From the NCBI GenBank assembly GCA_044892505.1, contig CM097882.1:241118001-241182000 (forward strand): a DNA stretch of 64,000 nucleotides, read 5' to 3'. Every line of letters starts with the position of its first letter. The first letter of the stretch is position 1. The notes beneath the pieces were generated by a model. The model did no database searches, was not told where the DNA came from, and was given only the letters and a program-made list of their open reading frames with translations. Positions 1 to 51,700 of the stretch are shown here, piece by piece. Source of the DNA: Schmidtea nova (Eukaryota). A program made the translations under genes and the position numbers.

Positions 1-1756
1 CATCCTGTTGCTTCTCTTCCATCATTGCTCGCATCATGTTGATCCTTGGATTTCCCTTTTTTAACTGTTGTAATCGTTGTTGCCTGACTTGTTCTTCTTC
101 TCGTCGTACTCTAGCCCATTCTTGATTATGTTTCTGTTGGCTTTCTCTATTCTCTCTTTCGGCCTCAGCTTCTATTAACTGGATCATGTTTATCTTTGGT
201 TGAGCAGCTTGCTGGCTTCCTTTTGCCATGCTTTCGATTATCTCGTGTAATCTGGATACCTCCTGTCTCAACTTGGCTTCTTTCATACTGGCTTCATTTG
301 CACTGCTGTTTGGGTTATTCCGTTGTTGACCCTGATTCCCATAGCTTGGTCGGTTTCCGTAATTCGGTCTATTTCCACTGTTTGACCAACTTCTCTGTTG
401 ATTACAGTCTCTTGACATGTGTCCGGTTTTTCCACATGTGTAACACGTTTTCCCATAACACCGATTTTCTGAGTGACCTTTTTGTCCACACAGTTTGCAG
501 GCTACATTCTGAAAACACTCTTGTTGCCAATGTCCGTTTTTCCCACACGTCTGACATTGCCTATTCTGCCTGTCATTGTAACTATTTCCTCCATTCGGGT
601 TCACCGTGATATATCCGTTGTTTTTCCTCGCTGGCGGTTCTTTGAACAATCTCTGCGAATGGGGAATACTTTGATTCATGTTTCTTTTTCCTTGTTCTTC
701 ATCTTCTGTCGTTTTTCCCATTACCACCGTAATTCTCATGTCGTTCATTGCCATATGCAATTCGAATAGGTTGGCTGCTTCCAACGCTTCATCTACTGTT
801 TTACATCCTTTGCATCCCACTTGTGCTCTGATGTCAGGTCTCCTGAGACCTCGTACGAATAACGCTGTCATCAATTCTTCGTCTACTGGGCTTCCTCTAT
901 TGAATGCCAGTTTCGCCAACTTTCTTAATTCACTTGCGTACACCGCATTTGACTCATTTCTCCTCTGTTTTCTTGCTGAGAACTCATCGAATGCTTCATT
1001 CAGCACTTTGTTTATCCCAAACGTCTGTTGGAAGAACTCCTTGATCGCTTCCCACGTTCTGGGTGGATTACTTCCCGATCTCTTTTCGATATACAGATCC
1101 AATGCGCTATCTTTCAAGTATAGCGGGATTCGATTTGCCAACGTTTCTGCACTCCATCCGCATATATCCACAAATATGCCAAATTCCTTCAGAAACGTAT
1201 CCAATCTACTGGCGTCTCCATTGAATGGTTCGCCCTTGAATTTTTCTCTTAGATCCTCTCTGTGTTCACTCATCCCGATTCCACTGTCTTGGAATACTGT
1301 ACTAGTTTTCTTTGCTTCTAGTTCACCACTTGTTTCTGAATTCGACTCTTCTTCTTCACTACTCTCTGTTTCGTTATCTCTTGATTCGCTTCTTGTTCTG
1401 TTTTCCCTGACTAGTTCACTGTCTATCGTTTCTACTTCGTTTCGTACTTCTGGATCCTCTGGGGTTTCTTCTTGATTCTCTTTATTACTCGAATTGTCGC
1501 TGATCTCTACTTGTTTGTTCTTTTGTTGCTTAGGTTTGTTACCTGTTCTTGTCCTTTTCGCTGCTTTTCTTTCTGCTTCCGTTAAGATTGGTATTATACC
1601 TGATCTTGTTTCTCGTCCCTCAATTTTGTCTATTCCTCAACTGCTTATATTCTCAACTGTTTTTCTACTCCGCTTTTGCTTTGCTTCTTCTTTGATTTGT
1701 TTCCTTTGATTGCTCTGACTGCTAGATTGCTTTGAATTGCTTGATTGATTTGTTTC
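1..1756 (-). CDS. gag: Ty3/gypsy Gag (capsid-like domain plus three CCHC zinc knuckles); open to the window edge, one in-frame TGA near 1637; missed by the ORF track
   Basis: Hand translation gives FNGDARRLDTFLKEFGIFVDICGWSAETLANRIPLYLKDSALDLY (retrotransposon gag motif), then CQTCGKNGHWQQEC, CKLCGQKGHSENRC and CYTCGKTGHMSRDC. First in-frame ATG after the stop is at 1273. Confidence 0.9.
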
Positions 1757-2144
1757 CTTAAAACAAATAATCACTTACACGATACGTCCCCGTTATCGTG
1801 TTTCTCGTCCCTCTCACGGGTGTAGTCATAATTCATGAAGATCCCCATTTTTCCCATTTCCCTTGATTTTGAGTCTATTTAAATTATCTATGCAGTCGTA
1901 TCAATTATCTATTCTTTATCAAATACACCAATTACTTTTCCCCAGTTCCCCAATTACTTTGTCGCTCAGCGCTCTTATTATTCCCTTTACTTTTCTCAGG
2001 CTTCTCTGGCTCTGAGTTCAAATCTCCCCTTATCTGTCAACTACTCTATTTCTCAACTATTCGCTTTATCTCCTATTCGCACTACGTTTACTACTTCATT
2101 CAATTCTCATCTCTACTCACCTTTAATTCAACTGACATCTCTCG

Positions 2145-2614
2145 TTGGCCTGTTGGGCTTTCCAATCAGCGCCTTTCATCTCACCTTTTATCTCGACTTT
2201 ATTATTCTCGACATCACTCATTATCTCATTAGCCTGCTGGGTTTTCCAGTCAGCGCTTTTAATCTTACCTTTTACTTCTGCTTCATTATTCTCGACCTCA
2301 ATTGTCGTTTCATTAGCCTGCTGGGTTTTTCCAGTCAGCGCTCTTATTATCCACCCTTTATCTCTTCACTGTCGACTTTTAACTGCTCTTTACTCCGATG
2401 ATCATCACTTTTGACCTGCTGGGTCTTCCAGTCAGCGTTCTCAATTTTTCCACTTTATTATTACTCACTTTTGTTATCTCGATCTTTCCTGATCGTTATC
2501 ATTGACCTGCTGGGTTTTCCAGCTAGCGTCTTTACCACTTTACTGTCTTAACAAACCGGTTTCATTTTATTCCCCTCGAATCTCATGGTCTACTGGGTTT
2601 TCCAGTCAGCACCC
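2145..2614 (-). repeat. Array of six conserved ~30-nt stem-loops at 84-98-nt spacing in the gag leader
   Basis: Core (+) CTGCTGGGTTTTCCAGTCAGC recurs at about 2145, 2229, 2313, 2411, 2502 and 2587. Spacers are more diverged than cores, and the stems show compensatory changes. Confidence 0.9.
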
Positions 2615-2933
2615 TTCACTTACTCACTTTACTTTACTACTCCTCTGTATGCATACTTTGACGTCATTAGGCCACATAATCAGCTTTACTCGCATTTATC
2701 AATACCCAGGTGCGCACCTTCAACTCTCTCATTATTACCTCGGTTTCTTTCAACCCTTATTCCTCATTATTCGCTATTCATTTTCACTATTCATCATTTA
2801 TCCTCATTATCATTTATTCATCTCCATTATCGCTTATTGATCTTTACTATCCGGATAGTTTTATACGTAATTTAGTCCTCATCTGCCTCACTTCGTCGTC
2901 TTTCTCGTGGGCTTTTACTCCATATTTTATTTC

Positions 2934-3445
2934 GAACGAGAACTATGCTCACCGCTGAGAACTATGCTCACTAACGAGAACTATGCTCAATGACGAGAAC
3001 TATGCTCACTGACGAGAACTATGCTCACTGACGAGAACTATGCTCACTGACGAGAACTATGCTCACTGACGAGAACTATGCTCACTGACGAGAACTATGC
3101 TCACTGGCAAAACATGGTTGTTATGAGGGTTCTGCTTACTGCTGGAAACTCTTTGCCCCGGGGACTATGTTCCCCGATGAGAACTATGCTCACTGATGGT
3201 GACTACAGGAATTATGTTTCCTGATGAGAACTAAGCTCACTACGATGACTATGTTTATTAATGAGAACTACGCTCACTGATGAGGACTATGTTCGCTGGT
3301 CTTGTGTTTATTAATGAGAACTCTGCTCACTACGAGATTTATATTTACGGACGAGAACTATGCTCACTATGACGAGACCTACGCTCACTAGGATGTTATG
3401 TTTTATGACGAGACCTATGCTCACTATGAGACCTATGCTCACGAA
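2934..3445. repeat. ~20-bp minisatellite (GACGAGAACTATGCTCACT unit), decaying rightwards
   Basis: Near-identical tandem units 2934-3106, degenerate units to about 3445. Confidence 0.95.
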
Positions 3446-4142
3446 CGAAAACTCGAAATATCATCTCTCAGTGGTTGCATGTGTTGCTTCGGGATGTTCC
3501 TCCCAGTGGTCACTTATGCTTCTTCGGAGAATCTATTGTCGCGTTTCGTTAAGTTCTATCTTTCAAGAACTATGGGCAAATCCTTTCTCTCTAGGACCCC
3601 TTTTATTATTTCCTTCCTTTCAAGGATTTCCTTTAACCTCGAGTTTTCCATTTACTCGGTTCGTCTGTTATACCCCTTTATTCTATTATCGATTCGTCAA
3701 CCTTTCTACTTGATTTTACCTTATGCGAGCTGATTACGTGCCTTTCATCATATACCACGTTTCGCTATTCATCCTACTCATTTCATTGCTTTCTCTCTCT
3801 CTTTACTGATCAGTTTATCCTCCTATTTTTATAGTTTTTTCTGCGCGCGCCTACACCTCATTAAGTTGTCCCTACCTTTCACCCCAACCAAAATATATAA
3901 AAAGATCGCATTGGTCCACTGATGCACGATGTGGTGATCAGTCACATCACAAGAGCTTTCCAATATCCGCGATTGGATCCCTTTCTACACATCTCGGGTG
4001 AGTTGATCAGTTGGTTCCCCCCAATGGGTGCTTATCGGACTACTCGTGAGTAGCTCATTATTACTTAGGTCATTTTTACCAAATCATTATTAAACCCTCA
4101 TAATTTCAACAACAACTGTACTTGTTCAAAACTTTATTTCTA

Positions 4143-4601
4143 TTACAAGTACACTGTTATTTTCTCGGATACGGGAAAATTGCACATAGGACATCGTTCG
4201 TTTATTTTACATTCATTACAGAATCGAAAATGCCCACATGGCAACAACATTATCTGTATCTTATTCATTTCACAGATGTAACACGTCAGATATTGTCTCG
4301 TATGTTCGGTTGTTATTCCTATCCACTCATCGTGTTTTGTTGTTAACTGTTGTTCTAGCCTGTGGCATTCGATATTCATCTCAGGGTTGTTTAATCGCTC
4401 TCTATACCACTGATATCGTGTTGCTGTATCCACTGTTATCTTATTCTCGCTTATGCTCATCATCATTTCGGCTCTTTCTGTGTTGTTTGTCGGTTCGTGG
4501 TATCCTCCTACCTCGAGTCGTCTTAACTTTCTCGTTATTGTCTCCACTGTTTCGTTGTTTGTCTCGAAAAACGTTTGCATTTCTTTTATTTTGTTCTCCA
4601 T
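4143..4601 (-). CDS. RING-finger (IAP/MDM2-type C3HC4) protein, putative E3 ubiquitin ligase, retroelement accessory gene
   Basis: 152-aa intact ORF ending CYICEMNKIQIMLLPCGHFRFCNECKINERCPMCNFPVSEKITVYL, the typical C-terminal RING layout of IAP/MDM2-like ligases. N-terminal helical region; no BIR domain seen. Confidence 0.85.
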   Translation of the reverse strand: MENKIKEMQTFFETNNETVETITRKLRRLEVGGYHEPTNNTERAEMMMSISENKITVDTATRYQWYRERLNNPEMNIECHRLEQQLTTKHDEWIGITTEHTRQYLTCYICEMNKIQIMLLPCGHFRFCNECKINERCPMCNFPVSEKITVYL

Positions 4602-5131
4602 CCCCTGAATGAATTCTCATTAATTTTGTTATCGATTTTTATTTATTATTTATTATTCCTATTCTATGGTAGCCCTACTGTTCGCTTTCTGTTGTTCTGT
4701 TTTGCGTCGTTACTTGCGTATCCCCCCGTGTTCTTGAATGTCGCCCCGACATGATCATTGTTAGTTGCTCACACTCATACCATTTTCATACACGCTTTTC
4801 AGCATACTTTTACCTTACGTCATGCATACTTTTCATCACTTTTCATACTGTTATTCCACATACTATTCATCATACTTCATTCGTCCTCATATTTTCACAT
4901 TCATACTTTCATTCTCATGCATACTTTTATCCCGTTCATCAATCTCATTATTTTACACTCATACTTTTATTTATTATTTTTCAACCCGATTCATTCTTGC
5001 TTCAGGACACTCAACCCTTCTGTTATTCTTTACTTTACTTTTCCTCGCTCAATTCAATTTCATACCGGTTCATGCGCTCTAAACTGTCCGCAGGTATCGA
5101 ATTCACTTTTTCCCACAAAGATCGATTTAAT

Positions 5132-5390
5132 CCCGGCTGAGCCCCCAAATTTATGCTGGTGTGTTGGTTAGATTGACAACTGAGATCCTTATGATTTTAT
5201 ATGTTAGGGTGATCTCGCCAACATAAAAACATTCCCCCGCTGACACCCATGATGTATCCCTAACTACTCATCATGTTGGTGCTGTGTCAACGTTGTGAAA
5301 TGACAAGGCAGGTGAGCAACCTTTCGGCTACTATTCCCTTGTTTATTCACGGGTCCACCACTACCGATAGAAGGTGTCTGTGGCTTTCTT
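5132..5390. other. Conserved non-coding module (copy A; related copies near 23555-23785, 46270-46540, 54150-54410)
   Basis: Shared boxes GCAGGTRAG ... CTAYTCCCC-like ... GGGTTCC-like ... TAGAAGG. Copies A and D also share CCCGRCTGAGMCCCMAAATTTATGYTGGTGYGTTGGT. Confidence 0.65.
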
Positions 5391-5543
5391 TCGGTCCCCT
5401 CTATAATACGCTCTTTCCTTTGCTCTAGGGTTGATTCGATGTTATCGTATCTGCAGATTTAAATGAATCCGGGTTTTATTCACATTCAATTCTCAGACAT
5501 TCTACAAACAAACAAGACAAGTCAAATCATTCGTTTTATACAT

Positions 5544-6143
5544 TTATTTATAGTTTAGCAATACCGAGGGTCTGATTACATTCAGAAGTTCTTGTTCAGA
5601 TAGACCGCTGAGCAAGTCTACTTCTATCCCGAGACGATCTGCGTAGGCACGTCTCTCTCTCCGCTTCTTCGCGCCGAGGCGATTCCTTCTCTTTGTGCGT
5701 TGTGAGCCTGCGGGAATTGTATTTGTCACTGTAGTAGCCGTGGCTATGGTCGATGCATTCTCTGTTTGGGTGCTCGTAGTCACCGCTATCGTGTCTATCC
5801 ATCGATTAAAGGTGCTCGCTCTGATCACGGGGCGCAATTGCTCGGTGATGAAGTCTCGGGTCGACACCTTTAAATAATTGGCCAACTCCAATTTCAGGGC
5901 TGCAATCTCTCTGGCATGTTCCTCAGCTACTCGTTCTGCCCTGTATCTAGCCTGCAGGATGGACTTAACCCGCTCTGGGTTAAACCATGTAGTCTTAATC
6001 CGCTGATGCTCCTCATTCAGCTGCCTTAATCGATTCTCCAGGACTCGTGAGCGCGCCTTATGTTCTCGCGCCTCGTGCTGGAAATCTCTGCCCTTGGTTT
6101 CCGTCATGTCTGTAAATATGTCATTAATGGTAGTATATGTCAT
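5544..6143 (-). CDS. Hypothetical accessory protein: N-terminal coiled coil, Thr-rich linker, Arg/Lys-rich C-terminal motif
   Basis: 199-aa ATG-initiated ORF co-oriented with gag; heptad-like charged N-half; KRRNRLGAKKRRERRAYADR. Confidence 0.65.
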   Translation of the reverse strand: MTYTTINDIFTDMTETKGRDFQHEAREHKARSRVLENRLRQLNEEHQRIKTTWFNPERVKSILQARYRAERVAEEHAREIAALKLELANYLKVSTRDFITEQLRPVIRASTFNRWIDTIAVTTSTQTENASTIATATTVTNTIPAGSQRTKRRNRLGAKKRRERRAYADRLGIEVDLLSGLSEQELLNVIRPSVLLNYK

Positions 6144-6294
6144 GTGTCTGATCTTTCGGTCATCCTATCGTCATTAAACAACTCCGCCTTATCATCATGT
6201 TATTCTCATACACTCAAAAACAAAACAAGACCGTTCTCACACAAATACATATATTTTTATATCTACGACAATCATTCTTTCTCGGCTGCATCAA

Positions 6295-6930
6295 TCAACT
6301 GAATGCCCTCAATTCCTGATCGGCAGGATGCTCGTCGCGACGAATTCCATTCTCCCAATACATTTCTGGGGCTGGGTTCCAACTCAGCTTATCTTTGTAG
6401 ATAAACACCTCCCAGAGGCGAAGCTCCTTGGGCTCGGGGTGTTGTTCCACGGAAACACTTCCTGGCGCATTTGAGTAGGCGAAGACTTCCCCAGTGTCGC
6501 CACACCGGGGCCTGTCTAGCAGCAGGTAACCGAGTTGATGTAGCTCTTTTCCGGACATCATTCCGGTACTTAGTAGCCATTGGGGTTGCTTTGACTCATC
6601 TAGGAATTGATAAAACCATCGGGTATTTTCCGGCTTGATACGATCCGAGGAGGGTACCCAATCGGTATCTCCTTCCCACCGCAACTGTAGTACAAACGCG
6701 CAAGCTGGGGTGCTAGCGGCTGAGCTCATATGAGCCCTCATCCATCGTCGTAGGTGGCGACGTGATAGTTCGACAACTTTTCGGGGTGCTTCGTTCTCTC
6801 CTCTGATGTTTGGGTTCGTATTTGGTCTGAGGACGGAGCGGGTGCGCCGTTTCTTACGGAGGATGGTATGCTCTAACTTTATAGGATACGCGACCATCGG
6901 CTTCTCTTGGTAGCTTTCTAGTTTCACCAT
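6295..6930 (-). CDS. Hypothetical accessory protein, no recognisable domain
   Basis: 211-aa ATG-initiated, GC-richer ORF co-oriented with gag; basic RKKRR patch. Confidence 0.6.
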   Translation of the reverse strand: MVKLESYQEKPMVAYPIKLEHTILRKKRRTRSVLRPNTNPNIRGENEAPRKVVELSRRHLRRWMRAHMSSAASTPACAFVLQLRWEGDTDWVPSSDRIKPENTRWFYQFLDESKQPQWLLSTGMMSGKELHQLGYLLLDRPRCGDTGEVFAYSNAPGSVSVEQHPEPKELRLWEVFIYKDKLSWNPAPEMYWENGIRRDEHPADQELRAFS

Positions 6931-8079
6931 AGTATTCCTAAAGAAAATGGTTGTTTTTAATCTACTGATTCTACGGCAGAACGGGCCTATTTATATTAGT
7001 CAACCCACCCGTCTTATTGATGAAATTTTGTAGGTCTGAGTGGTACCTTCTATATTCTTGCCGGATCATTGTTGGTGGCTTAACGTAGGTCGTGTTAGAT
7101 GATAGCTTGAAGCTAATATGCTCCGCTTTTTATTTCGACGATTCAGCTACGCACGATTGGTTGTATTTAGTAATCATATTGCTATTATATTTAATTTTCA
7201 TCAATCAGGTTCAACCACTCAACTACAACCGTTTTTATTTATTGAAAATACTATTTATTACATTCAATCTCGTCAGTCGTTCTCAATCACTTCCTCATCT
7301 AACCAGCAATGATCATACCATGTCGGGTAATTCTCGTAAGTTCCTGTGGTCCTTACTCACTGGGGTTCACCATTTTATCAGTTCTCGATGCCTGTGATTT
7401 ATTTATCATCTCTCCTGGCGACTAAACACAGCTGACAGAGGTTATCGATTATCCTTAACCCTTGATACTAGGTTCACTATGCCCGAACTCGTACGCGCTA
7501 ATGTCGACATATACCTACCCTTGTCGTCACCTAATTCATCTACACTAATGTTATTCACTACACGTCTATCCCTCGTCTAGACTTCGCCGCGATATATATC
7601 CTTCCTACAAAATGGGCTTCACTTTACGCTCGTTTACGACTACTAGTTTATACTCGATACCCTATCATCGTGATGCATAACGTTTATATTAGATCATCTC
7701 TACCTTGATTTCGTTCATGATCATTAGGTCTTACTCGATACCCTATGTGCATTTAACCCCTTCCGCTTTCCAAATATTTAATACACCTATGGTCCCGCCG
7801 CATCAGCACCTCACAACCGAAAGATTGTGTTGCGCTGAGAGGCCAGAGAATCCGTCAGGCTGTTAGGCCTCCGGAAAACCTTATTGATTTTAACATGTTT
7901 ATAAACAATTATGAGGGTTTAGACACATCAATAACATAACACCAAATTACCTTTTATTTCCAACTGGTTTCCAATACAAGGTTGTTACAAGTTATCAGTT
8001 ACGACTTGCACTCGGTAAAATTGACATTGTCAAATACTGATTTGACTTCAGTATTTATACTCAACCGGTGTTGTTGGTT

Positions 8080-8500
8080 AGCCAATCAGCATCGAGTATG
8101 TGTGTATGTTTGCTTCATTATTTTGTGTTGTCGGCTTTTTGCTGCCTAACTTAACTCGCCGATTTATTTGGTTAATCATGCGGTAAGTTTATTTTTTTGT
8201 ATGATTTAATTTTTATTTGATTTTGCTTTAGCTCTTCGGTGACATCCGCCCACGCGCTGTCATATTCAGATTTTTTTCTGTTTCGCATGAGTAAGTTTTG
8301 AAGATTTTTGTTGTTTTGATTAATATTTTATTTCTTTTAGATGTTGCCGCCTATTTTGTTACGCTTTGGTGTTGGTAATTTATTTTGTTGTTATTCTGTA
8401 GTTAATTTATTTTATTGATTGTATATTATTTTCAGATGCTGCTCGATTTGGCTGGCCCAACACCCATTTGGGGTCACGAGATATAGTTTAAGAATCCCTA
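8080..8500 (+). promoter_or_regulatory. Putative promoter and spliced 5' leader with three short introns
   Basis: CCAAT box at 8082; GT-AG introns with T-rich bodies at 8183-8231 (49 nt), 8291-8340 (50 nt) and 8375-8435 (61 nt). Confidence 0.45.
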
Positions 8501-9025: not shown

Positions 9026-9447
9026 ATGGTAGATGACACCGGTGATTTATATGCCGATGATGATGAGGCTAGACCAACTGGGAGCCCGGCAGAGAGAAAA
9101 AGCTTCTAAGTGATACGATAACAGTTCGATGCTTGCCATGGAAAACTTAAGTAATGTTTCGAGTTCCAAACAATTCTACAAATTTGGATAAAAGCCAGCG
9201 ATCAACGGGCATTTTCCTCCAATGCAATGTAGAATGCGAATCCACTTCATGGAATTGCAATGCTAAAGCTAAAATAACGTTGGTATCTCAACAGAAGTTA
9301 GCCGCCAGTGGGGAATTGTCCCAGCCAGACGAATCACCTAAACCGACAAATGAAAACGATAAAAATGCTAACTCTCACGATGTCGTTAGGACTATTGAGC
9401 ACAATTTCTATTCTATTAGTGACAAGTCTATTGAACTAAATTTGTGA
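9026..9447 (+). pseudogene. USP7: USP7 N-terminal MATH/TRAF-domain fragment, disrupted
   Basis: In-frame VRCLPWKT*VMFR...STGIFLQCNVECESTSWNCNAKAKITLV...VVRTIEHNFY matches USP7 VRNLPWKIMVMPR...[28 protein letters not shown]...FSRRISHLFF. Upstream DDDEARP resembles the pre-MATH segment. In-frame stop at about 9148; no catalytic domain. Confidence 0.8.
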
Positions 9448-9869
9448 TTAATTTAGAATTCTTAAATTTTAAATTAATATTGGAGTTATTGAAAATTTTT
9501 TATATTTTTGAGTTTTTTTTTGATTAAAGGTGGAAAATTTTGGGTTTTGGTTTTTAAATGATTTTTTGGTAAATTGTAAAAATTTTATGATTTAAAATGA
9601 TTTTTTGATAAATTGGAAAAATTTTATGATTTAAAGTGAAAGATTTGTTAATTTAGTTATTTAGTGTTTTAATAATGGTTTTTGGTAAATTTGGAATGGG
9701 ATAAAGTTTGAAATTTAAATTTTTTGCTGAATAATGGGTAAACTTTGTAATGGTTTTGAAAAATTGGTAATTTTGCCTAATAAATTTGTGCGATTTAATG
9801 AAAATAATAAATCTGATTTAATTGGGACTTTGATGGTTTAATTTTGGAAGATTGGCTTGCTAAATAAAC

Positions 9870-10529
9870 ATGATACTAGAAAATGGATTACTTTCTGTTG
9901 GTGTTCGAGGTTGCGATATGACCGATATGATAGGAAATGTAAATAATATTGACGATCAATTGGTAATGCAGATTTGTGACTTAATGCACACCTGCCCAAT
10001 GTATGGCGGCCGATGGCCTTATGGAGTTTCTATGCTCTTTGTTGGATGGGATAAAGAGATGTTTTATCCTGGATTTATGGATCTGAAGAGATCATTAATT
10101 AAATCAATTGTTGAGCAATTCGGAAATGATATTGAAGGTGCAGAATTATTAGATGCTTTGAATAGGTGCAGCTATGAGCGTATGAACGAACTAGCTAGTC
10201 AATTATTTGGTCATATTTCTATCCAGCCTGATGACAAGCAGCAGCTAATTGATGTGTTCTGCCAGGAGGTAAATGATGCTGTTGTTGGCGAATGGGAAGG
10301 TGAAACAGTTCCCGTTAATGGGTTAGAGGAGAACATTTGTTTGTCTTCGGATGAGGAGGAAGGCATTGGTAGCGATTCCCATTGGACTTCGTCTGCGTCC
10401 TCGTTGGTGTATATGGATGATGATAATGATGATGACAATGATTCCGTCGAGAAAATCAGAAGAACCCGACCGATATCAACCAAATATCATTCAGATATTT
10501 TCACAGCAGTTATATTAAAATTTTATTGA
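9870..10529 (+). CDS. Chimeric 219-aa ORF containing a ~35-aa proteasome alpha-3 (PSMA4-like) fragment and an acidic tail
   Basis: QLVMQICDLMHTCPMYGGRWPYGVSMLFVGWDK resembles PSMA4 [33 protein letters not shown]; the remainder is not recognisable. Confidence 0.6.
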   Translation: MILENGLLSVGVRGCDMTDMIGNVNNIDDQLVMQICDLMHTCPMYGGRWPYGVSMLFVGWDKEMFYPGFMDLKRSLIKSIVEQFGNDIEGAELLDALNRCSYERMNELASQLFGHISIQPDDKQQLIDVFCQEVNDAVVGEWEGETVPVNGLEENICLSSDEEEGIGSDSHWTSSASSLVYMDDDNDDDNDSVEKIRRTRPISTKYHSDIFTAVILKFY

Positions 10530-25500: not shown

Positions 25501-28500
25501 TTGTCACTAGAACTCTTCCCAGAAAGCGAACAGTAGCAACGTGGCAATTGCATGTTATTCTGACTGCCATTTCTAGGTCATTTGTGATATTTTAAACTGT
25601 CAACTATGTTTTGCTGTCACACGAGGTTATATTTTTATTCAAATTCTAACGTTCAACATTTTAAATTAACAATATCTGATTAAATGTTGAACTATAATTT
25701 GTGGGCGCTACTCGTGGTAAAGTCGACATTGATTTTGTCAACTTTAAAATTAGCTAGCACCTAAATGAAGACATAGTAACGCAAATGAAAATAATTGTAT
25801 TTCCAATGTCTATGATTGGAAGTTCAATAAAATCAAGGTGACGCCATACATTAATCTTAACTATTCTATTCACAGAATACTAACGTCTTATTTAAAGAAG
25901 TTTGATATATAAGGGTCCTTTGATTGAACAACATAGAACCCAACATAGAGTTTATTTTATTTTATTTTGCAGATTCACAGAATCAATAACTTGCACGCAA
26001 TTACTACATTAACCAAAGGTAAATTACTCAAATGACAAAAAAAGCGGTTGATGCTTTAAGAAAAACACGACTTCTCAACTAAGGTTTCTATAAGTTCTCC
26101 TGTTTATATATTTTCAATATAGTTTCTGGTTTCTCTATAATTCCTGGCTTTCATTTTTCTTAATGGTTTTAGCTATTTTATGTTCATATTTGTTTCTATT
26201 TTTTAATTTAAATAATTACAGCAAATTTATTTAAACAACACTAATACAACAAAATATGAAATTTTAGTAATGAAAATGAAAATTTAAATCTAATATGATA
26301 TGTTAAATTATAATGTTTATTCCTTTTAACAATTTTAATCAATACAAAGTAAAAACAAATTTCAGTTTTTAAATTTTATATTCTCAACATTTGAACAAGA
26401 TAATATTAAATTACAAAAATTAATTTTTAGAAAATCATTTTTACATTTTATAATTAAACAGTTTTAGTTTAAAAAAAATAAAAAAATTTTGATTGAACAG
26501 TAATGTAATGATTATTAAAAAAACAAGGTTGTTTAAATAATCAACAAGAAGGAGTTGTTTTTAAAAATAAATATTAAGTTGTTCAATTGTTTATTCTTGA
26601 TGTCTGATATTAAGATAGTTACTGGTGACCACGCCGAAATTATCGCAGTTAAAACACGTAGCCAAGATAAGAAATCTGCAAGAGAGGTTTTACCAAAGAA
26701 GGCTCAAGAAATCTTAGACGCTGAAATTCGTAGGTACGATGGAAGATGCGCTAAGGAAGCAGAAAAATGGATTATAGCGATCGATGAGCGGATTATAAGA
26801 AATGATCTAAAACGGACGGAAGCTTTTGATTTGTTGTTATCGGAAGAAGCGTCAATCTTGTGGAAGAATTTCAAAACCGAAGACACATCAGAGGATGATG
26901 CTAGAGAATTGTTTATAGAAACATTCACTATAAAAAAGTCAATATTAGATAAAATCAAGGATCTTGCAACTATCAGACAAGATGACAACGAACGTTTTGC
27001 TACTTTCGAGATTCGAGTTCTCAAAATCGTGGAAGAAGTTTTATATTCAGGATTGTCAAAGGAAGAAATCGTAAGTGAGATTATTATGCACAGAGTGAGA
27101 GATAAAAGATTAAAAGAGGTACTTACGCGAAACCTAAGATGGATCACAAAGAGAGAAATGATTTAGCAAAAATTTATGAGAAAACAGAGGACAGATCTGA
27201 AGAAATTTTGGCAGTGAAACCAATGTCATATGCGGAAAATTTCAAAGAGGGTCTAAGGAATCGAGAGGAATTGGAGAGAGGAAAGCAAAGACCATATATA
27301 CGGAAAGAACCCAGAAGTTTCGAAAACAAAGTGGAATACGGAAGATATGAACAACCAGAGTCCCAAAGATGGAAAGTACAGCAGGCGGGTGAAAAGAAGA
27401 TGCCAACTGTATCTCTGAAACATATAGCCAAACGGTTATACAACAGACATATGGGGTTACCAGAACCAAGGTCATGTGAACTCAAATCAGGTCAATGTTT
27501 TTGTTGCGGGGAAGAATGACATAGGCGCTTTGAATGCCCTTTAAAGGATAAATGTTTGATTTGCGGGAAGAACGGACACAATTTTAGAAATTGTAACCTT
27601 ATGAATGGACGACAAGGTTATAACACCAACGTCAAGAAGATATCATGTATACACGAAGAAATGGAGGATCAGCAGATAAATAGTTATGATTTTAGAGATG
27701 AATATGGAAGTGAGTGTCAACCACATGAAGTAGAAGTAAGAAAAAATGCCAACGATCCCATCGCACACATTTCGTCAATGGGATCGCAGATATAAATGAA
27801 GAAAATCGAAATGACAGGAGAAGAAGCATGAAGTATCAGACGAGCGATGGAAGAGAATAGAGTAAGATGGTTATTAATACGGTTGAAGTAGAAATGTTAT
27901 GGGATTCGGGGGCATCAATATCAGTGATGAATGAAGAAACATGGATAAACATCTGAAAACCGAGGTTAGATGCAAGTGATTTGACGATTTGTGGCGTTTT
28001 TCCAGGAAGTAAAAGACCACTGGGACGTACGATGGTAGAGGCGAAATGGAACCAAAAACAGAGGAAAATAAATATTGTTGTTATGAGGGATATTCGACCA
28101 GGATTTATTGGTGGAGTAGATACAATGAAAGCGTTCGGCATACAACTGGTGGAAGTGAAAAGTATTGAAGACAATGAGATCAAGACAAACATCAACGACA
28201 AAGACCGACTATTAAAAGCGAAAACAGACTTGCTGAAAGAGGAAAATACCGAGCTCAAGAAATTAATCACGGATTTTGCTTCAATAATTATGGCAAACAA
28301 ATTCGATTTAGGATATACCACGACGGTAGTACATAAAATTAAAACGACTGGTAATCCTGTGATGCAATATCCACGACGACAACCGATGCATCTGGAACGG
28401 AAGGTAGATGACTTAATACAAAAGTTAGTAGAAGCAAGGGTGATCAGGCGATGTCAGAGTCCATGGAACGCACCATTAGTCATAGTAGGAAAGAAAGACG

Positions 28501-31327
28501 GATCGATCAGAATGTGTGCGGATTATCGGAGTCTAAATAGTCTGACAGAGAAGGAATCTTTTCCGATGCCGAACATCACACAGTTACTGGATTGCTTGGC
28601 CGGAGCGAAGTTTTTCTCATTGGATCTGGGTCAAGCATATTATCAAGTGGCATTGGCAGCAGAGTCACAGGAGAAAACAGCGTTTAGTACGAAAAGCGGA
28701 CAGTTCTGTTTTGAGCGATTACCGTTCGGATTGACAACAGCTCCAGCTACATTTCAGAGATTCATGAATACTATGTTAGAAATTATTCTTTTTAATGGGG
28801 CGGTAGTATATTTAGATGACATCCTCATATACGGGAAGGATAAATCGGAACATGACAGCCGGCTAAAAGAAGTTTTTGAAAGAATCAGAAGTACTGGCGT
28901 GAAGATAAATTCGGAGAAATGTGAGATCTACAAGGATAAGTTAATATTTTTAGGGCATACCGTGAGTGAGTTCGGTATTCAAACTAACGAAGAAAAGATA
29001 CGGGTGATTAGGGAAGCTACAAGACCAAAATGTGCGAAACAACTGCGCTCATTTTTGGGACTGACGAATTATTATCGAAGATTTGTCAAAGATTATGCGC
29101 GTCTGGCAGCACCACTATATGCAGCAACAACGGGGTGTGATAAGACCTTACAATGTTCTCAAAAATGTGAAACAAGTTTCGAGAATTTAAAGAAGCCCTG
29201 ATGAAAACACCTATACTGGATTATCCTAGGATGGACAGGGTATTTGTCTTAGATACGGATGCTTGTTTTGAAGCGGTAGGTGCCGTTCTGAGTCAAATCA
29301 CAAAGGAAGGTAAAGAAGTAGTAATTGCGTATGGGTCGAGACATCTCACAGCACACGAAAAAGGGTATTGTGTGACCAGAAAGGAATTGCTGGCATTACA
29401 TGAGTATGTTACTTATTTTCGTCAATACTTATATGGGAAGGAGTTTATAGCGAGAACCGTCCACAAGGCGCTTGTATTTATGAATACGACAAAGAAAGCG
29501 ATAAGTCCACAATTCCAAACATAGATGGTGAACTTATCAGAATATAATTTTAAATTGCAGTATCGGAAAGGAGTAGAACATGGGAATGCCGATGGATTGT
29601 CGAGAATTGGAGGAATGTTGTGCGCACAATGTCAATTACAACACGAAGAGCCGAAGAAGGAAGGAGCTAGGGTACGATATATTAATTCGATACAAAAAAC
29701 TGGCACCATGATGAAAATTATGGAAGAAAAGAAGGACAAAGAGTTTCAAGGAGCATGGAATTATATCAATGAATTTTTAAATGAGGAAGAAGATTTTTTC
29801 AAGAAATCTTTCCTATATGCTCACAAAGACAGATTGAAGATCAACGATGACCTAATTACCGTAGAGAGAGAATCCAATCATTTAGTAGCAGTTCCAGAGA
29901 GCCATCTAAAACAACTGGTTAAGTAGATTCATGAAGAATTATGTCATGTTGGGGAAAAAAGTCTTTCATTACATGGAAAATAGTTTTTTTCTGGCCAAAG
30001 ATGTGTGAAACAGTAAGACACATTGTAAAAGAATGTAGTATATGTGCGAGAAGGAAAATAGATCAAGGAAGAACGAAAGAACTTTTTATTTCACGCGGAA
30101 GTAACGGGTTTCTGGAACAAATCGTAGTTGACGTAGCACACATGGAAAAGACATGGTCCAGAAAGAGATATGTGGTTGTCATAATAGATCGGTTCAGTAA
30201 ATTAGTATGCCTAACTGCGACAGAGAAGCAAGACGAAATGACGATATTCCGGATTATACTTCATAATTGGATTTATAAATATGGAAAGCCAGAAAGTATT
30301 CTTTCAGACAGAGGAAAACATTTTGAAGGCAGATATATGAAAGAGAAATTCGAAGTTTTAGGGATTCGTCAAGAATTCTCAGCACCATATCAACATCAAT
30401 CAAATGGATTGGTAGAAAGAGTAATTCGCACGATGAGAGATCTACTGGTGACTTCAATTCTTAGTAACAACAGGCGATATGAATGGTGCGAGATACTTCC
30501 AAGGGTGGAATTCAGCATCAATGCGACGTTTCAAAGCGCAACTAAATATTCTCCATTTGAGATTGTGTATGGACGGAAAGTGTCACTTCATGCCAATGGA
30601 CAAGGATCAGAGATCAAAGGCCAAAGAGTTGACGAGAAAGTAATTCAGAATGCTAAGTTAGCGGCGGATAGAATGAGAATTTTAGAAAAAGATCGAAGAG
30701 GTAAACGTTCTTTTAAAGTGGGGGAGGAAGTATTGGTTCGACCTGAGCCACACAGAAGGAATAAGAATGACATACAATACGATGGACCATATAAGATTGT
30801 TAGAATTTTGTCGGAACACCAGATTGAACTACAATTTCCGGATGCTAGACGACCGAGGCGGATAGAATGGCTGAAGAGATGGCATCAAAGTTGAGGAGGG
30901 GAAATTAATGTAATGATTATTAAAAAACAAGGTTGTTTAAATAATCAACAAGAAGGAATTATTTTTAAAAATAAAAATTAAGTTGTTCAATTGATAATTC
31001 TTGATGTCTGATATTAAGATAGTTACTTGAACAATAATCAAAATAAATTTACATAAATAATAAAAATTGATATTATGGTATTTGCAACTTCAGTTACCGT
31101 TACAACATTTGACTGAAAGACTGGAAATCTTTCGTATAATACAACACTATAAAAGAAATAATATTGTAATATTCTATTTGAGGTACAAAAATAAATCATG
31201 ATATAATAACAAGCAAAATATTTATTAATTTGGTTTTCCAGCCGCTTATTCTCTGCTTTATCTTATTCAAAAACGTTTCTTTTTCCTTTTATAAACAAAC
31301 TTCTTTTTGGTAAATAATGATATTTTA

Positions 31328-48789: not shown

Positions 48790-51700
48790 AATGGCTACTA
48801 ATGGTTAAAATAAAATAAATACCAATTGAACGAATGAACGGATGATGTCTAATCTTTCCGGGAATGGTTCACATCCGTTGGCTGTTAGTTTATGGCCTAG
48901 AAAGCGGACACGTGGTTTGAAAAACTGACACTTATTGGGGCTGATCTGTAGGTTGTTCTTTTTCAGGATATCGAATACTTGTTGCAAGTCCTCTGCATGT
49001 GAAATGCTATCGAGAGAGGCGACAATTATGTCATTTAGATAGGCGAACGTGTGACTCAGGTGCCGGAAGGTGGTATCCTTGAAGAGCTGGAGTGTCTGTG
49101 CAGCGTTCCTGAGACCAAACGGCATAAAGAGGTATTCGAATTTTGCCGAAAGAAATCGTGAATGCTGTTTTTGGGATATCGTCTGGGTTAACGGGAAACT
49201 GGTGAAAGGCTTTGGCTAGGTCGATTGTGGAAAAACACGTTACCAGAAAAACGTGAAATTAGGTCCTTGATAAGGGGCATCGGGTAAGCATCGTGTACAG
49301 TAACACGGTTCAGTGAGCGGAAATCGCCACATGGACGGAAGGAGCCGTTTTTCTTTGTTACCATGTGGATTGGAGATGCCCATGGGGAGAAGGTACGTCG
49401 AATAATGTCTTTCTCTTCGAGTTCAGAGAATTCGAGTTCCACGACCTGACGTCTGTTGATTGCAAGTGGCCGAGCGCGACCGTGTTGTGGTTTACAATGA
49501 ACGGTGGTGATGAAATGAACGGATTCTTTGCTAGGGGTGTGTGTGGTGGACTTGGTCAGGAGATTTGGGAAATGTGCGCCGATGACTGACTCTACGTACA
49601 TTATCTGCTGTTAAATAAATTGTAGTATGTTGCGCTTCTATCGTGAAGACTGGTTCAGGGAGCTGATATATTCGTCTGTTCTTACAGTCAATGTTGACTT
49701 CTTCGTTCGTTAGCAAATCGAGGCCTAGTATAGGAAATATGGTATCAGCGATGTAGAAGGAGTGCATGAAATGTTTGGGAAAACCTGGAAGGCGAAACTC
49801 AATTGTTTTTGTACCGGAGAGCAGTATGTGAGTTCCGTTCGCCTCAACAGCTGAGGATGAACAGGGTGTGTCTGCGATGAAAATGGTAGGTAGTATTGAA
49901 TATGACGTGCCTGTCTATGAGGAATTTTAAGGTGCGTAGCTTGGGCTGACCGTATTCTTCAAACATTTTGGCGTTGATCGTGAAGTTTCCGGAAGTGCTG
50001 GGTAAGACTGTAGTGGTTAGGGTTGCATTGTTTATGGTGACGATGGGTGTTGGTAAGAGTGGTGACGGGGGTGTGGTTTGTGGTGGCTGTGGTAAAATGT
50101 GTGTGTAGTCTGTGCGGATTTCGTCGTTGGAAAAGGTGAGCGGTGTTTGTGGTAATGTTAGTGGTATTTTTTATGGTATTACGAATGCTGCTGCTGCTAG
50201 TGATGCGGGTGGTGCCGTGTGTGGTGCACTGGGTGATATTTTTATTTGTATTGTTGGTAATGTTGTGCAAGGTGTGCTAGTTGGTTCTTGTTCTGGTGTT
50301 GAAGCTTGTTTTAATATTGGTGGTGGTGTTGTGTGAGAAAATAGTAATGTGGAGCGGCTAGCGGTTGTTTTTGAGATGGTACTTGCTAGCGCAGTTGATC
50401 GTATGTGCGTTGGACGTGGTTGGATGTGAGAAAGAGAATTCACTGGCAGGAAGTCATCGGAGCTTGCAAAAATATCCGATGACTTGATTAGCTTTTTGCT
50501 GGAAGGTAGTCACTTGTGCGCCATGTGCATTCGTCAAGGCACGATCTGGTATCGTTCTTGAAGAGGTGATGATGGCTACAAACTGGAATAGTTGAACTTT
50601 GATGAGAGCGAATTTCTGACATGCAACTGATGCAGCATTTCTGTGCGTGCTGTCTAAATCTGTTATGATAAAAGCAGTTTAGTGTGGCGTTGTTATTGGA
50701 TTGCATGTTTTGTGTGCGCGTTGTTGGTAGGTGATTGGGATGTTGTGCATTATGTGATGGAGATGTATTGTTGGGATATCTTTTAACTGTCTGAGGGAAA
50801 GGGTGGTGAGGTGGATGCACTGCGTTAACAGTGGGCGGCAGTAGAGGTGCTGCGTAAATATATGAGCGGGGTTTGTGGTTGAAGTGCGTGAATGTGGTCA
50901 GCGATCTTCACGTTATGATATGGATCTTCAGAGTCAACCAATGCCAGCGAAGTTTGTAGATGATAGGGGAGTCCAGAAAGAAATTGATGAGTCAATAGAG
51001 GTATGTTTTTAGAAAGACCGGGTACTGCTGCATTGTTTGAACGAACTAACTCTTCCAAAAAGAGACTAGGTTGTTGGCCAGAATAAATCTGTGGCGCCAA
51101 TAGCTTTTTCAGAGCTTTGGTTTGGGAAGAAGTGTATTTGGTCGTAATTAGATTTTTTAGGCTTTCGTATTGATTTCCTGCGTCAAGAGCATCAGAGATT
51201 TTGGGGCTAGTTCAGATATCAATTTGGCAGGTAAACTGTCGAGGAGGTAATCTGTTATTAAAACGCGTGAGGATATAGGCTGGAAGTATCGGTGTTGTAT
51301 TCGCGAAAGAATCATTATCGCGCGTCAGATTTTGGTTAGGATAATGGGTGCTGTTTGTAGGTAAAGGGTGGAAGAGAGGCGGGATAGAGAATTCGGGAAA
51401 GGTAATTTTAAATAATATAATATTTATTAAACAATATTTATTAAATAATATACATAAAATTATGATAAATATGAATAAAATTTTATTTATAGAAATATAA
51501 TAAATGATACTTATTGCCATATCATTTGGATTGGTGAACCTATTGTCGTTTGGTTGAGATATTTGATGTTGTTGTTGGAGTGAGTGCATAACTTCGGCAG
51601 TTGTCAGAGAGGCTGATAACAATGAGCACATAGTAGCAGCAGAGAATATCGACATTCCTATGGAAGGTTGTCGAAAAATTGTGCATTGTTGGTTCTGACT

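Follow-up and report, generated by a model that had tools for sequence, protein, structure and literature searches.

Probable selection on a six-copy array of bulged RNA hairpins in the leader of a Burro-type gypsy element, and a tentative case for Rev-like RNA export

Six copies of a small bulged hairpin precede gag in a giant retroelement of Schmidtea nova, raising the question of whether the array is an RNA structure maintained by selection and what might bind it. The window analyzed is a stretch of 64,000 nt, to which all coordinates refer unless a locus is named, and the element lies on its minus strand. The element is 29,400 bp long, with 3.3-kb LTRs, TG...CA ends and a 4-bp target-site repeat, and its 5' LTR (5154-8462, minus strand) is 99.8% identical to the 3' LTR. 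The primer-binding site (PBS; 5130-5147, minus) is presumably of the tRNA-Pro type, judging by retroviral PBS sequences. A TATA-like box (8051-8060, minus) lies about 400 nt into the LTR and is conserved in three families, A, B and C, of which A is the family of this element, with about 100-160 copies. The order is an LTR with two ORFs, the PBS, a RING-finger accessory ORF under purifying selection (4143-4601, minus), 19-nt repeats, palindromes, the array and gag; the latter starts from its first Met (1-1273, minus, extending past the window, in a frame open from 1636) and encodes three CCHC knuckles. After gag come a fusion glycoprotein, protease, reverse transcriptase, RNase H, integrase, ankyrins, and TRAF-like and coiled-coil ORFs. 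The viral fusion glycoprotein (PF24664, 4.5e-71) is placed between gag and RVP, with RVT_1, RNase H and rve following, so that gag-env-pol stands in one reading order; the frame is interrupted twice in this copy and is open for longer in other copies. The 3' accessory ORFs (L022:2575-5853, minus) comprise a split TRAF-like gene (RING, zf-TRAF, MATH), a coiled-coil ORF and a membrane ORF.

Burro elements (GYPSM1) are described in the relevant section of PMC6431247 as about 30 kb long, with env in frame between gag and pol and matching a mononegavirus-type fusion protein, three CCHC knuckles, ankyrin, TRAF/MATH, RING and coiled-coil domains, tandem repeats and thousands of related copies. The features tested were present here: a length of about 30 kb, env between gag and protease, ankyrin, MATH-TRAF, RING and Smc-like domains, and three knuckles. 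The host is a Burro-type giant gypsy element, an assignment made by match to that description. The first-pass annotation was thus right to call it a gypsy element, which is of the Burro type (as the section of PMC6431247 describes it) rather than an unknown gypsy, and a reading as a nematode endogenous retrovirus was dropped once the Burro description had matched. The same section reports BCL2 in Burro elements, detected by profile methods (PMC6431247); BIR and Bcl-2 gave no Pfam match at E<=0.1 in this element. Four unnamed proteins have the gag-env-pol layout too, at 32-38% identity, and no relatives with DNA context were found in viral contigs or metagenome contigs. The window also contains two unrelated RT-bearing retroelement remnants (26537-30891, plus; 48838-49415, minus; 31-40% identity) and, beside the insertion, host fragments weakly matching MATH and a proteasome subunit (9151-10529, plus).

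All six minus-strand units claimed by the first-pass annotation, which had numbered them in the opposite direction, were found within 2147-2613, separated by purine-rich spacers of 56-70 nt, and each can fold as described. The architecture of a unit is a stem of 3+3+4 bp with a bulged G and a bulged A on the 5' strand and a loop of 5-6 nt, and the folding energies of all six lie between -9.0 and -11.9 kcal/mol. Counted in the sense direction, the units are unit 1 (2587-2613; formerly copy 6; outer helix GGU/ACC), unit 2 (2504-2530; copy 5; GAC/GUC), unit 3 (2413-2439; copy 4; AAC/GUC), unit 4 (2315-2342; copy 3; AGC/GCU), unit 5 (2231-2257; copy 2; AGC/GCU) and unit 6 (2147-2173; copy 1; GGC/GCC), all on the minus strand. 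These outer helices, and the inner C-G to U-A change in unit 6, are all present in the sequence as annotated. The exceptions to the uniform unit formula are the bulged A of unit 2, which is displaced by one place, the 6-nt loop of unit 4, and two of the six loops, which read AAGAC and AAAGC. The mismatch in unit 3 is real and occurs in this insertion alone (1 of 88 such units), and the sense-strand G-U pair of unit 1, also correctly observed, is a minority variant (5 of 84 copies) that by itself carries no case for selection; the commoner letters at 2439 and 2592 were also seen in contigs of four independent-looking runs.

In a 1.2-kb context, pairing probabilities were 0.8-1.0 for the inner stems and 0.0-0.96 for the outer stems. 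The array folded better than shuffled sequences on both strands (z -2.75 on the gag-sense strand, z -3.97 on the opposite strand), and folding energy alone cannot choose the strand. No seventh unit was detected in the 64-kb window or the remainder of the 29.4-kb element. The exact 21-mer of the hairpin occurs 391 times in the genome, compared with 0 for the reversed control. A covariance search of positions 1-8000 against Rfam, including TAR, RRE and CTE, returned no matches at E<=1; readings as a hammerhead, K-turn, IRE or SECIS were excluded by sequence and by Rfam.

The PBS 18-mer occurs 2940 times in the genome, and among the first 100 sites listed, 40 belong to elements outside family A (B 4, C 2, D 4, E 29, other 1). 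Families B and C, with capsid identities of 72-74%, have collinear leaders with a single hairpin at the position of the array and no outer helix; their hairpin pattern was found at 267 genome sites (control 0). Relative to the array units, the family B hairpin has a U-A to C-G change and at least six loop types, and the family C hairpin has two fixed sense-strand G-U pairs in addition; loop sequence is free to vary. Thirty family B copies were chosen by an upstream anchor: the arms were exact and the loop 5 nt long in 24, the loop had 6 nt in one, a bulge was changed in one and a pair was broken in three, and the remaining copy escaped the pattern and was detected by the covariance model. Both arms were exact in 19 of 30 family C copies, several of the others sharing a collapsed or broken hairpin. 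For B and C taken alone, arms were not significantly better conserved than flanks (p 0.13 and 0.32, 16 columns only). Three family C copies with a collapsed first hairpin (L296, L306, L307) have a second unit whose CCAA/UUGG inner stem is fully paired, which may be a compensation; in other family C copies the second unit is poorly paired.

Family D encodes gag only, in elements of about 11-12 kb with 1.4-kb LTRs that are 99.6-99.9% identical, and has at least 110 copies. The hairpin was intact in none of 30 copies and the palindromes were retained. Its arms showed shared variants in 4 of 16 columns versus 33 of 440 flank columns (p 0.03), its loop has become an unstable poly-A tract, and about half of the copies are able to form a different, weak 6-bp stem. 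Three family E elements followed from LTR to LTR, two of them with a 5000-aa frame, contained no covariance-model match to the hairpin, and a 12-nt wobble-paired look-alike in this family was excluded, having been missed by the covariance model. The commonest PBS-linked family (29 of the 40 sampled; L091 and related loci) is mostly internally deleted, with an ORF of about 1000 aa that has a protease match and no gag match. Because the hairpin has decayed in the mobile family D and is absent from full-length family E, it is not a universal packaging signal, and it is apparently dispensable for some mobile families. From this comparison, the array itself appears to have arisen recently, when an older single hairpin was multiplied six-fold and each unit gained an outer helix of its own.

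Selection on pairing was assessed among copies of family A, which number at least 101-104 by exact motifs. Thirty-eight copies were picked by a gag motif, and all 38 had five or six units. Two copies that lacked anchors, one near-duplicate and four arrays of five units were set aside, and the other 31 were analyzed. Variants present in two or more copies were found in 3 of 84 core-stem columns versus 61 of 305 spacer columns (p 1e-4, with columns taken as independent), which agrees with the earlier claim that the spacers are more diverged than the cores. Private variants were far less depleted in stems (10 core-stem and 56 spacer columns), and with G/C columns only, variants occurred in 5 of 86 stem versus 26 of 104 spacer columns. 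A wider set of 105 loci, many of them picked by the exact unit-2 motif, yielded 87 distinct arrays with 502 units (two skipped), of which 72 had six units, 11 had five, two had four, one had seven and one had two. Here pairing was kept by 6 of 8 stem variants present in at least three copies, compared with 9 of 37 rarer ones (p 0.011).

The six shared variants that keep pairing consist of two double changes and four sense-strand G-U pairs. A C-G to U-A double change in unit 6 was present in 20 of 87 copies with two single intermediates, and a G-C to A-U double change in unit 2 in 5 of 80 copies with none. The shared variants that break pairing are an A-C end pair of the last unit (26 of 87) and a G-A in three second units. 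Sense and antisense wobbles stood at 4:1 against 8:16 (p 0.13), so that the G-U excess alone was not significant, and units 4-6 have exchanged sequence. Across the families, 11 distinct units showed double changes at 5 of 10 pairs, a count reached in 16 of 500 shuffles and lower in slid controls; these are related sequences, and the fraction is not a probability. The first-pass claim of direct evidence for selection on RNA structure is therefore supported by the genomic copies and the sister families, and not by the single G-U pair or by one window. Because stems avoid inherited variants, double changes segregate and sister families keep the pairing, we consider it very probable that the array is a selected sense-strand RNA structure.

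The setting of the array within the leader bears on which RNA would carry it. About 390 nt downstream of its last unit lies a predicted 3' splice acceptor (1757-1780, minus), a T-rich tract followed by AG, with 483 ATG-free nt from there to the gag Met; in families B and C the distance from hairpin to acceptor is about 350 nt. All 13 elements compared, which represent five families, have a T-rich tract and AG followed by 298-652 ATG-free nt up to the Met of a long ORF; 4-9 ATGs would be expected in such stretches, and 0-3 of 300 shuffles were as free. The interval from PBS to AG contains 40-108 ATGs per element in these 13, and 91 in this one. As the ATG-free stretch follows the T-rich tract and AG, this arrangement points to a spliced gag-env-pol mRNA with the array inside the predicted intron. 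No RNA run was listed as containing positions 1300-2900. Four runs whose even coverage of the whole stretch resembles DNA had 60 donor-acceptor joints, and none of the 15 listed falls at the predicted splice sites, which has no bearing on splicing, and deletions in LTR and leader were excluded as splice products, their joins resembling microhomology.

Upstream of the array is a cluster of short perfect palindromes, candidate dimer-linkage signals (2647-2859, comprising 2846-2859, 2708-2719, 2659-2666 and 2647-2656). Short GC-containing palindromes numbered six versus 0.9 expected over 2915-1758, and 13 versus 1.6 in family B. An excess of palindromes is found in the leaders of all five families (here 2397-3850), where flanks vary and self-complementarity is kept, marking a candidate dimer-linkage region. 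Further upstream is the 19-nt tandem repeat (2936-3460, minus), with nine good copies at 2936-3106 and decayed copies above, in place of which the sister families have unrelated repeats. These leader tandem repeats share one position and have family-specific unit sizes of 19, 29-32, 41-45, 56-72 and 21 nt; those of B, C and D have a common GGCCAA...GAGCCAT-like motif, similar to the sequence that borders the last array unit on its 3' side. Two other hairpins were noted: one just above the predicted acceptor (1790-1815, minus), whose CGATAAC/GTATCG stem also occurs in families B and C, and one directly after ATAAA/AATAAA near the 3' end of the LTR (5315-5347, minus), whose stem letters differ among families A-D with pairing kept. 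The latter is a candidate polyadenylation-site element, and R would then be very long, with both LTR ORFs inside it.

The first-pass annotation had suspected a protein-binding array and had named the ORF at 5544-6143 (minus) as a possible ligand. This LTR ORF encodes 199 aa from its Met, with long predicted helices, a linker, an Arg-rich motif at about 5634-5693 and a C-terminal Leu/acidic helix; the basic motif reads KRRNRLGAKKRRERR and is followed by the Leu/acidic helix. In the predicted structure (mean pLDDT 76, pTM 0.33) long helices are joined by a linker and the motif lies within a helix. Relatives in families B and C are 20-29% identical over the alignment and retain the basic motif; all 8 ORFs aligned from A-C have it, as do all 7 additional A copies, and it is more Lys-rich in C. 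Against seven A copies the ORF had a pN/pS of 0.03-0.18, the motif being nearly invariant. No such ORF was found in the 6 kb preceding the PBS at three D loci, five E loci and one further locus, or when family E elements were scanned over their full length, and one family C locus lacks it where its LTR is interrupted. Word search, profile search, an atlas search (best 0.81, unusable) and Foldseek returned no homolog or fold match.

The hairpin and the Arg-rich ORF therefore co-occur in A, B and C, with neither the ORF nor an intact hairpin in D and E, a pattern that rests on five related families and about two independent contrasts, the Gag tree giving no resolution among them. The 3' accessory ORFs have the same family distribution as the hairpin. 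Within family C no link between ORF and hairpin was seen, the ORF being full length in 7 of the 10 altered-hairpin copies versus 8 of the 10 whose hairpin is exact. The suspicion is thus strengthened by the conserved Arg motif and the co-occurrence among families, and the test within family C was negative. The second LTR ORF (6295-6930, minus; 211 aa from its Met) matched no family and has weak positional relatives that are confined to family B; its structure model is poor and the atlas gave no usable match. It was excluded as a partner, being absent from family C. The RING ORF was likewise excluded, since it is present in E and its distribution differs from that of the hairpin.

Our preferred explanation, which we hold tentatively and at somewhat short of an even chance, is that the array is a multivalent site on unspliced genomic RNA that would keep this RNA from being spliced and favor its nuclear export, the likeliest ligand being the Arg-rich LTR protein. 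One small bulged hairpin would have been expanded six-fold in the Burro-type leader, its pairing presumably kept by selection on the sense RNA. Transcription would start near the LTR TATA box, and the gag-env-pol mRNA would be spliced to the acceptor at 1757, removing the array; with the array excised along with the intron, only unspliced or partly spliced RNA would carry it. A groove opened by bulges and read by an arginine-rich helix is general behavior of Rev/Tat-type motifs, and the 5'-strand bulges may open such a groove here. Six copies set in unstructured purine-rich spacers could then allow the protein to oligomerize.

Two other readings also make the array a site bound by protein. In one, which is rather unlikely, the array is part of a packaging and dimerization domain bound by the Gag nucleocapsid, six copies raising competitiveness for the capsid. 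Packaging signals of many retroviruses lie between the PBS and the splice site region, as the array does between PBS and predicted acceptor; GC-containing palindromes abound in the leaders of all five families, Gag has three knuckles, and no multi-copy derivative without an array was seen among 16 suspect loci. The first-pass suggestion of a packaging signal is nevertheless weakened by family D, a mobile family of at least 110 copies that keeps its palindromes with an intact hairpin in 0 of 30, and by the three LTR-to-LTR family E elements, which have no match, although Gag itself has diverged in D and in E, so that a change of ligand is possible. Slightly less probable again is binding by a host export adaptor or splicing factor that would tune the gag acceptor about 390 nt downstream, in the manner of a constitutive transport element or an intronic silencer. 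All of the evidence for RNA structure applies to it equally, the distance from hairpin to acceptor is nearly constant, and the negative test within family C fits a ligand other than the ORF; however, it gives no reason for the hairpin to be missing exactly where the Arg-rich ORF is missing, in two families, and there was no Rfam match.

It is improbable that the units are inverted-repeat factor sites in DNA or a neutral expansion. Template switching between arms yields double changes without intermediates, tandem repeats turn over fast in the leader of every family, unit number varies from four to seven with exchange among units 4-6, both strands fold, and the hairpin is no better conserved than other blocks of the leader. 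Template switching would, however, erase the bulges, which persist in all families that have the hairpin; inherited variants avoid the stems that private ones strike, the two fixed changes of family C spoil the DNA symmetry yet give sense-strand G-U pairs, and stem letters differ between families with pairing unchanged. Least probable by far is a TAR- or boxB-like role, in which the array would recruit the Arg-rich protein for processive transcription of the 29-kb unit, or would steer translation of gag. The unit is very long, with AATAAA-like signals after the accessory ORFs, and the shorter family D has lost the hairpin; yet the TATA box is about 5.4 kb upstream of the array, those signals also precede it, and family E is equally long without a hairpin. 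As to translation, 91 ATGs intervene between PBS and acceptor, the ATG-free stretch starting only at the acceptor.

The Rev-like reading can be extended to the more doubtful proposal that a clade of Burro-type elements evolved a switch of its own, made up of an Arg-rich helical LTR protein and a minimal 21-27-nt hairpin that was amplified here to six sites, as in an MS2 cassette. If true, both parts of an export system could be named for a gypsy element, which would have acquired it independently of vertebrate retroviruses. Export of unspliced RNA from long, multi-gene invertebrate retroelements is understood in few cases, CERV among them. For this question the present element offers both a small, well-defined RNA motif and a candidate ligand, and the hairpin can be compared in naturally occurring single-copy, six-copy, decayed and absent states, so that direct tests are feasible using a 200-aa protein and short RNAs. 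An RNA tag might also be made from a hairpin-protein pair that is so compact and orthogonal. Should the ligand be something other than the LTR protein, the array would still clearly exemplify RNA structure under selection in the leader of a Burro element.

MS2, PP7, boxB and TAR are small stems with single-base bulges that are read by a protein, and arrays of them raise avidity. The units described here are likewise small bulged stems, with a different loop and bulge geometry and no Rfam match, and those systems are not known to have natural arrays of this form. Packaging and dimer-linkage leaders of MLV, HIV and MPMV (treated in part in PMC5035971) are similar in leader position, palindromes and small stem-loops among single-stranded purines; they differ in that the hairpin here is dispensable in families D and E and its loops are not self-complementary.

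Set beside its description in PMC6431247, Burro resembles the present element in length, env position, knuckles, domains and tandem repeats, the TRAF/MATH domains lying here in the 3' accessory ORFs. That section of PMC6431247 describes no leader hairpins, splice acceptor or Arg-rich LTR ORF. The first-pass annotation knew of no such description for a gypsy element, and no description of Burro leader hairpins was found in the literature searched; the repeats could be mentioned in the first publication on Burro, in the supplements to it or in Repbase.

Rev-like proteins have in common an Arg motif and an export signal, and they usually contain a coiled coil as well (PMC5568270, PMC3856414). The systems of HIV Rev, HTLV Rex and MMTV Rem are comparable to the present case in being accessory-gene-rich elements with a helical protein that has an Arg motif and a Leu-rich tail, and in placing a structured element on RNA that is here predicted to be intronic. 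The candidate has no sequence homology to them. In those systems one branched structure of 300-500 nt, located in env or the 3' LTR, serves as the response element (PMC5568270, PMC3856414, PMC4588558), whereas here a string of 27-nt hairpins is found in the leader. A precedent is CERV of Cer1 in C. elegans, a gypsy-encoded factor needed for export of unspliced genomic RNA, for which a term search of the Cer1 paper returned no named stem-loop or RRE-like element (PMC10309623). As characterized there, CERV has 517 aa, a Cys loop and no recognized RNA-binding motif (PMC10309623), unlike the LTR protein of the present element, which has 199 aa and an Arg-rich motif.
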